DNA of 32,000 bases from positions 1,842 to 33,841 of the forward strand of contig JAWBON010000005.1 in NCBI GenBank assembly GCA_038826135.1, written 5' to 3'. This document shows positions 3,558 through 22,395 of the stretch, one piece after another. Each line of letters opens with the position of its first letter. Position 1 is the stretch's first letter. This stretch comes from Candidatus Odinarchaeota archaeon (GTDB lineage Archaea; Asgardarchaeota; Odinarchaeia; Odinarchaeales; Odinarchaeaceae). The notes under the pieces were generated by a model, which ran no database searches, had not been told where the DNA came from, and saw only the letters and a program-made list of their open reading frames with translations. Both the position numbers and the translations under genes were made by a program.

Positions 3558-3663
3558 TGGTGCGGGGGATGGGATTTGAACCCATGAAGCTGTCTGCGTC
3601 TATTAGACTCTACAGCATAGGATTCTGAGTCCTACCCCTTAGACCTGGCTCGGGAACCCCCGC
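3558..3663 (-). tRNA. tRNA-Leu(CAG) with encoded CCA and a probable 18-nt intron in the variable arm
   Basis: Acceptor stem GCGGGGG/CCCCCGC, discriminator A and CCA. Anticodon arm TAGGA-CTCAGAA-TCCTA (CAG at 3627-3625). T arm ATGGG-TTCAAAT-CCCAT. The variable region is 32 nt unspliced and 14 nt spliced. Confidence 0.95.
3592..3609 (-). other. Non-canonical tRNA intron in the variable arm of tRNA-Leu
   Basis: Central helix CUGU/GCAG, bulges AG^A and AC^A, inner hairpin GUCU-AAU-AGAC. Removal leaves U-GCU-GUAG-AGC-UUC, a normal leucine variable arm, and an 88-nt mature tRNA. Confidence 0.8.
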
Positions 3664-8191: not shown

Positions 8192-8482
8192 TCAGTCGCT
8201 AATAGTCTCCAAGATACTTACCGCGTTCCATATTTTTACACGCAGCCTTTAATAAGGCAGCTTTGTGCGAGCATGAAGCGGGCAGTTAGGATCTTGAGAG
8301 ACCTCATCAAGTATGGAGATAGCGTTCGAAGCTCTTACCGCCATCCCATTAACCTTACTATCGTTCAAAGCTGCAATAGATTCGCTTGCAGCCCTCCTTA
8401 TATTTCTAGGCACGGAGGTATCTTCACTAATCATAGTCAGAACCTGTATCGCCTGCTTAGCTTTCTCCTCAGCAGTGGACAT
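8192..8482 (-). CDS. UPF0147 family protein; predicted spliced CDS complement(join(8192..8235,8263..8482)), 87 aa
   Basis: Family motifs [43 protein letters not shown] lies 7 nt before ATG. The genomic frame stops at 8249, but a family-like C-terminus [13 protein letters not shown] follows in the same frame after a 27-nt insertion. Confidence 0.85.
8236..8262 (-). other. Candidate BHB/BHL-type pre-mRNA intron (27 nt) in the UPF0147 gene
   Basis: AGCUGCCUUAUUAAAGGCUGCGUGUAA. Central helix GCAC/GUGU, two AAA bulges, inner stem GCUGCCUU/AAGGCUGC and an in-frame UAA. Confidence 0.8.
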
Positions 8483-11295: not shown

Positions 11296-11940
11296 ATGGT
11301 TACTGTTAAATGGCTCGGCCACGCGTGTTTTGAGATTAAAGGGGATGTGACTGTGGTAACCGACCCGCATGACGGTGTGAGTCTGGGGATTAAGCCGCCT
11401 CAATCTAAAGCTGATATCGTGTTAATAACTCACAGCCACTATGATCACGCTGATGGTTTACCTCTTGTACGTAGAGATGACACTGTTGTTCTCAGAGAAT
11501 TCGTGGGTGAGAGGAACGTTAAAGGCGTTAATGTGAGGGGGGTTAAGACCTTCCATGATACAAGTAAGGGTGCTCAACGCGGTTTGAATGTTATATATCT
11601 TTTTGAAATGGCTGGGATGAGATTTCTTCATCTAGGGGATTTAGGGCATGTTCTAGGATCGGATATCGTGGAGTCTGTTAAACCGGTTGATGTGCTTTTT
11701 GTTCCAGTGGGGGGCACTTATACGCTAGATCATTCAGGCGCGACTAAGATCTATAATGAGATTAAACCGAGAATAACAATACCGATGCATTATAAAATAA
11801 GCGGGTTGAATCTTCCTTTAAGCTCAGTTGACACGTTTCTAGCCGGTAAAGCGGAGGCGAGACGTCTAGGAGTTAACTTCTTGGAGATTAGTAGGGAGAA
11901 GCTTCCTAAAACGAGTGAAATAATTGCTTTAACGGTATAA
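11296..11940 (+). CDS. MBL-fold metal-dependent hydrolase
   Basis: WLGHACF, DPH, ITHSHYDH, HLGDLGH, VPVGG and PMHY. Confidence 0.9.
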   Translation: MVTVKWLGHACFEIKGDVTVVTDPHDGVSLGIKPPQSKADIVLITHSHYDHADGLPLVRRDDTVVLREFVGERNVKGVNVRGVKTFHDTSKGAQRGLNVIYLFEMAGMRFLHLGDLGHVLGSDIVESVKPVDVLFVPVGGTYTLDHSGATKIYNEIKPRITIPMHYKISGLNLPLSSVDTFLAGKAEARRLGVNFLEISREKLPKTSEIIALTV

Positions 11941-22268: not shown

Positions 22269-22395
22269 GGCTCGGTGGCTCAGCCCGGCTAGAGCAACGG
22301 ACTTGTAAGTTACTTGAAAACCGGGAGATCCGTCGGAAATAGTTGTCACCAGACCTATTGGCGAATCGGGGGTTCAAATCCCCCCCGAGCCTCCA
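22269..22395 (+). tRNA. tRNA-Thr(TGT) with two introns: 37/38 (22308-22327, 20 nt) and 46/47 (22337-22365, 29 nt); CCA encoded
   Basis: Acceptor stem GGCTCGG/CCGAGCC, U73, anticodon arm ACGGA-CTTGTAA-TCCGT after splicing. Central helices CUUG/CGGG and CGUC/GGCG, inner stems GUU/AAC and AAUAG/CUAUU. The mature product is 78 nt. Confidence 0.92.

Follow-up and report, generated by a model that had tools for sequence, protein, structure and literature searches.

A gene encoding a UPF0147 family protein is found on the minus strand of the window (the whole 32,000 nt stretch of DNA that was analyzed) at positions 8482-8192, with ATG at 8482-8480 and TGA at 8194-8192. The source genome, of the genus Odinarchaeum (Asgard), comprises 105 contigs with a total of 1.26 Mb and is 93% complete. 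As called, the unspliced open reading frame comprises 77 amino acids (8482-8249) and ends at an in-frame TAA at 8251-8249; reading through this TAA leaves the frame open as far as the TGA at 8194-8192. An earlier sequence-only reading of the locus had proposed that a short tRNA-type intron interrupts the gene. The minus strand reads as quoted there, at the same coordinates, and removal of 27 nt (8262-8236), an 87-amino-acid product and a 77-amino-acid unspliced frame were all reproduced. An Asgard origin, which had been guessed there, also proved correct.

On this reading the putative exon 1 (8263..8482, minus strand) is 220 nt long and its final base is the first base of a Lys codon, which places the intron in phase 1. 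The candidate intron (8236..8262, minus strand, 27 nt) contains the TAA, and exon 2 (8192..8235, minus strand) consists of AA, 13 codons and TGA and encodes the C-terminal helix of the family. The predicted join reads CGC ACA A|AA AUA UGG, with a protein junction at HARTK| and a spliced RNA junction CGCACAA|AAAUAUGG.

Membership in UPF0147 is indicated by a PF03685 score of 104.5 bits (cut-off 23.6), in which the full profile is matched with the insert bridged, and NCBIfam NF003319 agrees (104 bits, cut-off 89). The 77-amino-acid frame matches profile positions 2-71 of 81 with 97 bits. In the read-through product the match to positions 2-81 of 81 takes up 90 residues and thus points to an insert of nine residues. 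Two solved structures of the family, PDB 2qzg and 2qsb, align through the C-terminal helix encoded by exon 2. A search of Rfam displayed no family at 8192-8482, and the 27 nt sequence is single-copy in the genome.

The insert and its flanks display a predicted secondary structure in which GCAC of exon 1 (8268-8265, minus strand) pairs with GUGU within the intron (8241-8238, minus strand) to form a 4 bp central helix. The remaining parts, all on the minus strand, are a 5′ bulge AAA at 8264-8262, with a predicted cut at 8263/8262, an inner stem of 8261-8254 with 8249-8242 (seven pairs and one U.U), a loop AUUA at 8253-8250 and a 3′ splice-site AAA at 8237-8235, with a predicted cut at 8236/8235. 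Cuts after the second bulge base of each strand take out 8262-8236, the 27 nt then consisting of the third 5′-bulge base, the 8-position inner stem, the AUUA loop, the GUGU strand and the first two 3′-bulge bases. The minimum-free-energy fold recovers the elements proposed earlier, i.e., the GCAC/GUGU helix, the stem of seven pairs plus U.U and an outer UUCAUG/UAUGGA pairing, and it adds a second outer segment in which UGCCCG (8284-8279) pairs with 8225-8219. The distal outer helix of this fold has UGCCCG. UUCAUG as its 5′ strand (8272..8284, minus strand) and UAUGGA. CG. GGUA as its 3′ strand (8219..8232, minus strand).

Two 3 nt A bulges had been described at the locus. The one on the 5′ side is a true 3 nt bulge, but on the 3′ side the cut falls within five consecutive A residues opposite CUC, which together form a 3 × 5 internal loop (CUC/AAAAA). 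The central helix has no outer helix directly next to it, and it is the distal exon-exon helix that closes the loop. The position of the 3′ site in an internal loop makes this a relaxed motif (HBh′/BHL), a form that the title of the sequence-only reading had allowed. Canonical features are seen in the central helix, in the 5′ bulge and in the inner stem h′; the BHB motif as a whole is present in the relaxed HBh′ form. In tRNA introns with the BHB motif, the 5′ strand of the central helix is exonic and the 3′ strand is intronic; the UPF0147 insert has the same topology, with H in the exon and H′ in the intron.

The folding energy is unremarkable (z = -1.46). The distal outer helix is 90.6% paired in eight sequences, mostly through invariant coding bases, and its pairing is weak evidence for structure. 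Evidence that goes beyond chance comes from the coincidence of the cut sites with an exact nine-codon alignment gap, from covariation in eight sequences and from purifying selection on exon 2.

The alignment gap is seen in 14 intron-less Asgard orthologues, which read HART[KR]IWNAVSILE with a nine-column gap exactly at the insert. The predicted join is identical to the sequence of intron-less Asgard orthologues from other families. Orthologues might have ended naturally at about 77 amino acids, in which case the intron proposal would fall; close and distant orthologues, however, carry the IWNAVSILE helix without the insert. UPF0147 was matched by the search in 365 of 400 Asgard genomes. Among the 150 matches listed, interruptions are confined to three lineages, namely this genus, a sister genus within its order and a single genome from another family; in-frame inserts could be present among the 225 UPF0147 matches beyond those listed. 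Five genomes with two UPF0147 matches were considered as split genes and rejected, as both copies are full-length paralogues.

A 27 nt insert is retained at this position in all three congeners and includes a TAA or TGA in frame. One congener is represented by the closed chromosome of Ca. Odinarchaeum yellowstonii LCB_4 (1,418,269 bp), in which UPF0147 is annotated as 77 amino acids. A protein search detected four further clusters of 74-75-amino-acid open reading frames that end in ...HARTK or ...HARTM, and the DNA behind them displays 27 or 30 nt inserts at the same codon. Altogether, eight Odinarchaeia assemblies have an insert of 27 or 30 nt at this codon, with unrelated inner sequences. 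An assembly artefact, which had been named as a possible source of error, is removed by the presence of the insert in at least eight independent assemblies. All eight inserts fold with a 4 bp helix, a 3 nt 5′ bulge and a hairpin, the inner stems having six to nine pairs and some of them a bulge of 1-2 nt. Public annotations and gene callers give 74-77-amino-acid proteins for the intron-bearing genes. The protein search also gave closely related full-length proteins of 87-89 amino acids, one of them labelled Odinarchaeia. The spliced-form protein of the intron-bearing lineages was not found in a collection of 15 billion proteins, where the nearest full-length proteins (87-89 amino acids) belong to intron-less lineages.

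In the alignment of the eight sequences, 91.5% of the cells in the structure are paired, compared with 20-46% in slid controls. Seven pairs are changed on both sides, and none of 500 shuffles reaches the covariation score, a comparison that overstates independence because the sequences are related. The central helix is 100% paired in all eight sequences and includes one C-G to U-A double change. Here a synonymous change in the exon, CGC to CGT, is matched by a change of the intron strand from GUGU to GUAU. Compensatory variation among relatives had been put forward as a check of the proposal; it is present and extends to pairs formed between exon and intron.

The register of the cuts is also constrained by these sequences. 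In two lineages, with AAU as the 5′ bulge or AUA at the 3′ site, only the 2|1 cut gives ACA AAA AUA, encoding the conserved Thr-Lys-Ile, and other registers lead to Ile or a stop. In the 12 sense codons that precede the final codon, exon 2 of the eight lineages displays 115 synonymous vs. 13 non-synonymous pairwise codon differences, the latter all at one S/T/N position, which indicates that exon 2 is translated. Conservation is lacking in the notional codons of the insert, which in one lineage include two in-frame stops. All eight in-frame introns hold an in-frame stop, at three different positions, and one TAA to TGA change keeps the stop. The retention of stops may represent selection against translation of unspliced mRNA into a protein that bears the insert; alternatively, chance in AT-rich sequence may account for it.

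The gene has a second site of interruption. In the sister genus, three genomes, with records labelled Promethearchaeota or Hodarchaeota, have a 31 nt insert that follows GAU CCA A within the invariant DPNCP motif, and one genome of another Asgard family has a 29 nt insert at the same DPN|CP point. These inserts have an AUCC/GGAU or ACCC/GGGU helix, 3 nt bulges on both strands and a 2 bp outer helix. Their stems of 9-10 bp show compensatory changes, three pairs of the second-site structure are changed on both sides in four sequences, and a synonymous GAU to GAC change of the exon in the central helix is matched in the intron. Neither 31 nor 29 is divisible by three, and the frame is restored only if the inserts are excised precisely. 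The frame-breaking inserts thus largely remove read-through as an explanation and indicate that the phenomenon recurs. In silico, the 2|1 join restores the conserved family sequence in all eight sequences with the first site and all four with the second. Both sites are in phase 1 and share a common junction, CAA|A.

Explanations other than splicing have to account for these data. The 74-77-amino-acid proteins given by gene callers and by public annotation, together with the 97 bits that the 77-amino-acid frame alone scores against PF03685, would be expected if this short form were the only real protein, or if the gene were a decaying pseudogene in which the hairpin represents an inserted element or a terminator. 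Such a truncation is very unlikely when all eight lineages keep exon 2 in frame and alter it almost exclusively by synonymous changes, when the intron is single-copy and not a repeat, and when the C-terminal helix is part of the solved structures of the family; moreover, the break in the sister genus lies earlier and would remove about 20 conserved residues. That the stop is read through or recoded, with the insert translated as a loop of 9-10 residues, is the least probable of the explanations weighed here. It draws on the inserts of the Odinarchaeum clade, whose 27 or 30 nt are multiples of three and leave exon 2 in frame. The DPN|CP inserts, on the other hand, shift the frame, and no orthologue has residues at this position. 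The stops are also variable (TAA or TGA, at three positions, two of them in frame in one lineage), and it is base pairing that is conserved and not the peptide of the insert.

Even less likely than truncation is a translational bypass, for which there is a precedent in the ribosome hop of phage T4 gene 60. Here, peptidyl-tRNA-Lys would take off from AAG at 8263-8261, pass over both hairpin and stop and resume on AAA at 8237-8235, so that an identical protein would arise with no splicing of the RNA. The take-off and landing codons both specify Lys in the window, downstream of the take-off site there are a hairpin and a stop close by, and in three relatives UGA is directly after AAG. Bypass calls for matched codons in all carriers, and the match fails at two points. 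In one relative AUG precedes UAA and there is no landing codon to match it, although Lys is recovered there by the 2|1 cut; at DPN|CP there is no matched codon pair and the frame changes. The covarying and conserved 4 bp helix with its 3 nt bulges is left unexplained by a ribosome hop, as is the same geometry in four other genes of the genome, gatA, gcvPA, a radical-SAM gene (rSAM) and kae1.

The UPF0147 insert is therefore considered very probably a genuine pre-mRNA intron of the splicing-endonuclease type with a relaxed BHB (HBh′) motif, on the strength of the sequence comparisons. Comparison with relatives indicates that the full-length protein would require cutting and rejoining of the mRNA by tRNA-splicing enzymes. 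Cleavage, ligation and the enzymes responsible we infer as follows. In the pre-mRNA, exon-1 GCAC would pair with intron GUGU to form the 4 bp central helix, flanked on the 5′ side by the 3 nt bulge and the eight-pair intron hairpin and on the 3′ side by the looser A-rich loop, which the distal exon-exon helix would close. A two-paralogue (αβ)2-like EndA would cut after the second base of each bulge, and RtcB would join the exons, the 27-mer probably being circularized. The join would restore the 87-amino-acid protein with its C-terminal helix, and unspliced mRNA would yield the 77-amino-acid truncation.

Genes for such enzymes are found in the genome. Matches to PF01974 represent two EndA paralogues. 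One is of the catalytic type with the Tyr/His/Lys pattern and is split by an assembly break between C48:1-135 and C72:2-247; the ends of these two contigs encode the same overlapping EndA peptide. The second paralogue, on contig C45 (5827-6087), has Ala aligned with the catalytic His, as judged by eye. Asgard EndA, including that of Odinarchaeota LCB_4, is reported to be an (αβ)2 enzyme with an L1 loop that confers relaxed specificity (PMC5829648). The two-paralogue EndA detected here would fit this (αβ)2 type, which accepts relaxed motifs. RtcB is present with a score of 494 bits. It is encoded in one open frame of 995 amino acids (C16:2586-5357, plus strand), in which profile positions 50 and 49 are separated by an insertion of about 1.4 kb, probably an intein.

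More such introns had been predicted to be hidden in the genome, and at least four other genes, recognized by inspection of junction peptides together with Pfam continuity, are split in the same way. In gatA, a 29 nt segment (C35:9457-9485, plus strand) lies inside the GSDTGG|.RQP amidase signature, and the Amidase profile is matched at positions 5-153 and then 156-445. The gcvPA gene is interrupted by 30 nt (C60:2456-2485, minus strand) at AYTP|.QAE, with the GDC-P profile matched at 9-99 and then 101-428; this insert is GC-rich and has a CCCC/GGGG helix and AUA bulges. The radical-SAM gene is split inside CxxxCxxC by 29 nt (C33:9419-9447, minus strand), and its downstream exon matches from position 14 of Radical_SAM. 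The kae1 gene displays a 26 nt gap with a change of frame (C27, about 11634-11659, minus strand), the TsaD profile being matched at 6-63 and then 64-264, a break that is consistent with another mini-intron. The four have the same H4-B3-hairpin-H′4-B3 layout but no mutual sequence similarity. With UPF0147 counted, at least five protein genes of the genome are split; gatA and kae1 are normally essential. The idea of a mobile element was rejected on the grounds that the UPF0147 intron is single-copy and that four verified introns have no common sequence.

Genome-wide motif scans did not display an excess of such sites. A loose BHB scan gave 105,359 motifs, of which 4946 were frame-restoring, vs. 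4902 in a relocation control, i.e., no enrichment. A scan for hairpin-type BHB motifs gave 4028 in the genome, and its 151 hits are likewise not enriched over an antisense control (161) and a relocation control (about 173). As BHB-like motifs are common by chance and the candidates are not enriched, the motif alone proves nothing. Several candidates proved to be tandem genes and were rejected: C23:14012-14037 (an aldolase end and a dehydrogenase start) and C9:7105-7126 (a pelota-like start) by eye from the junction peptides, and C88:2408-2434 (NAD kinase and PIN) and C13:18852-18884 (LplA C-terminus and radical SAM) from Pfam. Also rejected was a textbook-looking motif at C33:8081-8117 (plus strand), which is inside an intact MiaB-like open reading frame of 437 amino acids whose frame would be broken by excision. 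It has a CAGC/GCUG helix, CUA bulges and a 10 bp stem, and represents a chance resemblance or else a structure so far unexplained. The gene for cbf5 is uninterrupted in this genome, with the TruB_N match within one open frame of 331 amino acids.

A close known counterpart of the UPF0147 intron is the pre-mRNA intron of cbf5 in Crenarchaeota (Desulfurococcales and Sulfolobales; Watanabe 2002; Yoshinari 2006; Yokobori 2009, PMC2738675). The cbf5 introns are 16-44 bp, mostly with relaxed BHB motifs, and the cut falls after the second bulge residue, before the third; splicing has been confirmed by cDNA and is attributed to a hetero-oligomeric (αβ)2 endonuclease of relaxed specificity (PMC2738675). 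In the literature searched, crenarchaeal cbf5 provides the only experimentally confirmed BHB introns in archaeal coding sequences (PMC2738675, PMC7714728). Like the cbf5 intron, that of UPF0147 is short, is situated in coding sequence, has a relaxed BHB and is predicted here to follow the 2|3 cut rule, and it shows patchy gain and loss among relatives. It differs in the gene and in the phylum, Asgard (Odinarchaeia), and in having two separate insertion sites within one 87-codon gene in different lineages. In addition, at least five protein genes of the genome are split, UPF0147 among them, and its splicing is predicted from sequence.

In Haloferax volcanii, HVO_1309 has a BHB intron in its 5′-UTR and is an mRNA substrate of the splicing endonuclease (PMC7714728). 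An mRNA substrate is predicted for UPF0147 as well; the HVO_1309 intron, however, is in an untranslated leader, in a euryarchaeon with an α′2-type enzyme, whereas the UPF0147 intron interrupts codons. Eukaryotic HAC1/XBP1 mRNA carries a short non-spliceosomal intron, the ends of which are joined by tRNA ligase (RtcB in metazoa) and the removal of which alters the C-terminus of the protein. Removal of the UPF0147 intron would similarly change the C-terminus of a protein without a spliceosome, but HAC1/XBP1 is cut by Ire1 at twin stem-loops and not by tRNA endonuclease at a BHB. A literature search, which was not exhaustive, detected no paper on mRNA BHB introns in Asgard or on introns in UPF0147.

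UPF0147 thus represents a well-supported comparative case in a gene different from cbf5 and in Asgard, the lineage nearest eukaryotes. That Odinarchaeia, and probably other Asgard lineages, keep a population of endonuclease-spliced coding micro-introns that are gained recurrently, with a stop retained in those that are in frame, appears on balance somewhat favored. If so, the closest prokaryotic relatives of eukaryotes would routinely depend on protein-catalyzed splicing of mRNA, and a stop within in-frame introns would mean that unspliced mRNA cannot give an insert-bearing protein. Gene calls in Asgard MAGs probably contain similar genes wrongly listed as truncated, frameshifted or split, which would distort estimates of completeness and of pseudogenes. 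The introns also offer a tractable system for how mRNA splicing coexists with coupled transcription-translation and how such introns arise.

Archaeal tRNA introns with BHB, HBh′ and BHL motifs were reportedly described by Marck and Grosjean in 2003. The UPF0147 intron resembles these in motif geometry and presumably in the enzymes used. On the other hand, its host RNA is an mRNA, with no tRNA body to aid recognition, and excision must restore the frame. The tRNA genes of this genome are intron-rich too, and those of Asgard are unusually so (PMC11291895; bioRxiv 10.64898/2026.10.13.758758). With its default settings ARAGORN gave no tRNA for the window, where Rfam detects two intron-bearing tRNA genes. 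One, at 3561-3663 (minus strand), is 103 nt long and scores 51 bits. The other, at 22269-22392 (plus strand), scores 46.7 bits; its length of 124 nt leaves about 50 nt of intron, and the intron option of ARAGORN reads it as Thr-UGU with a 45 nt intron.
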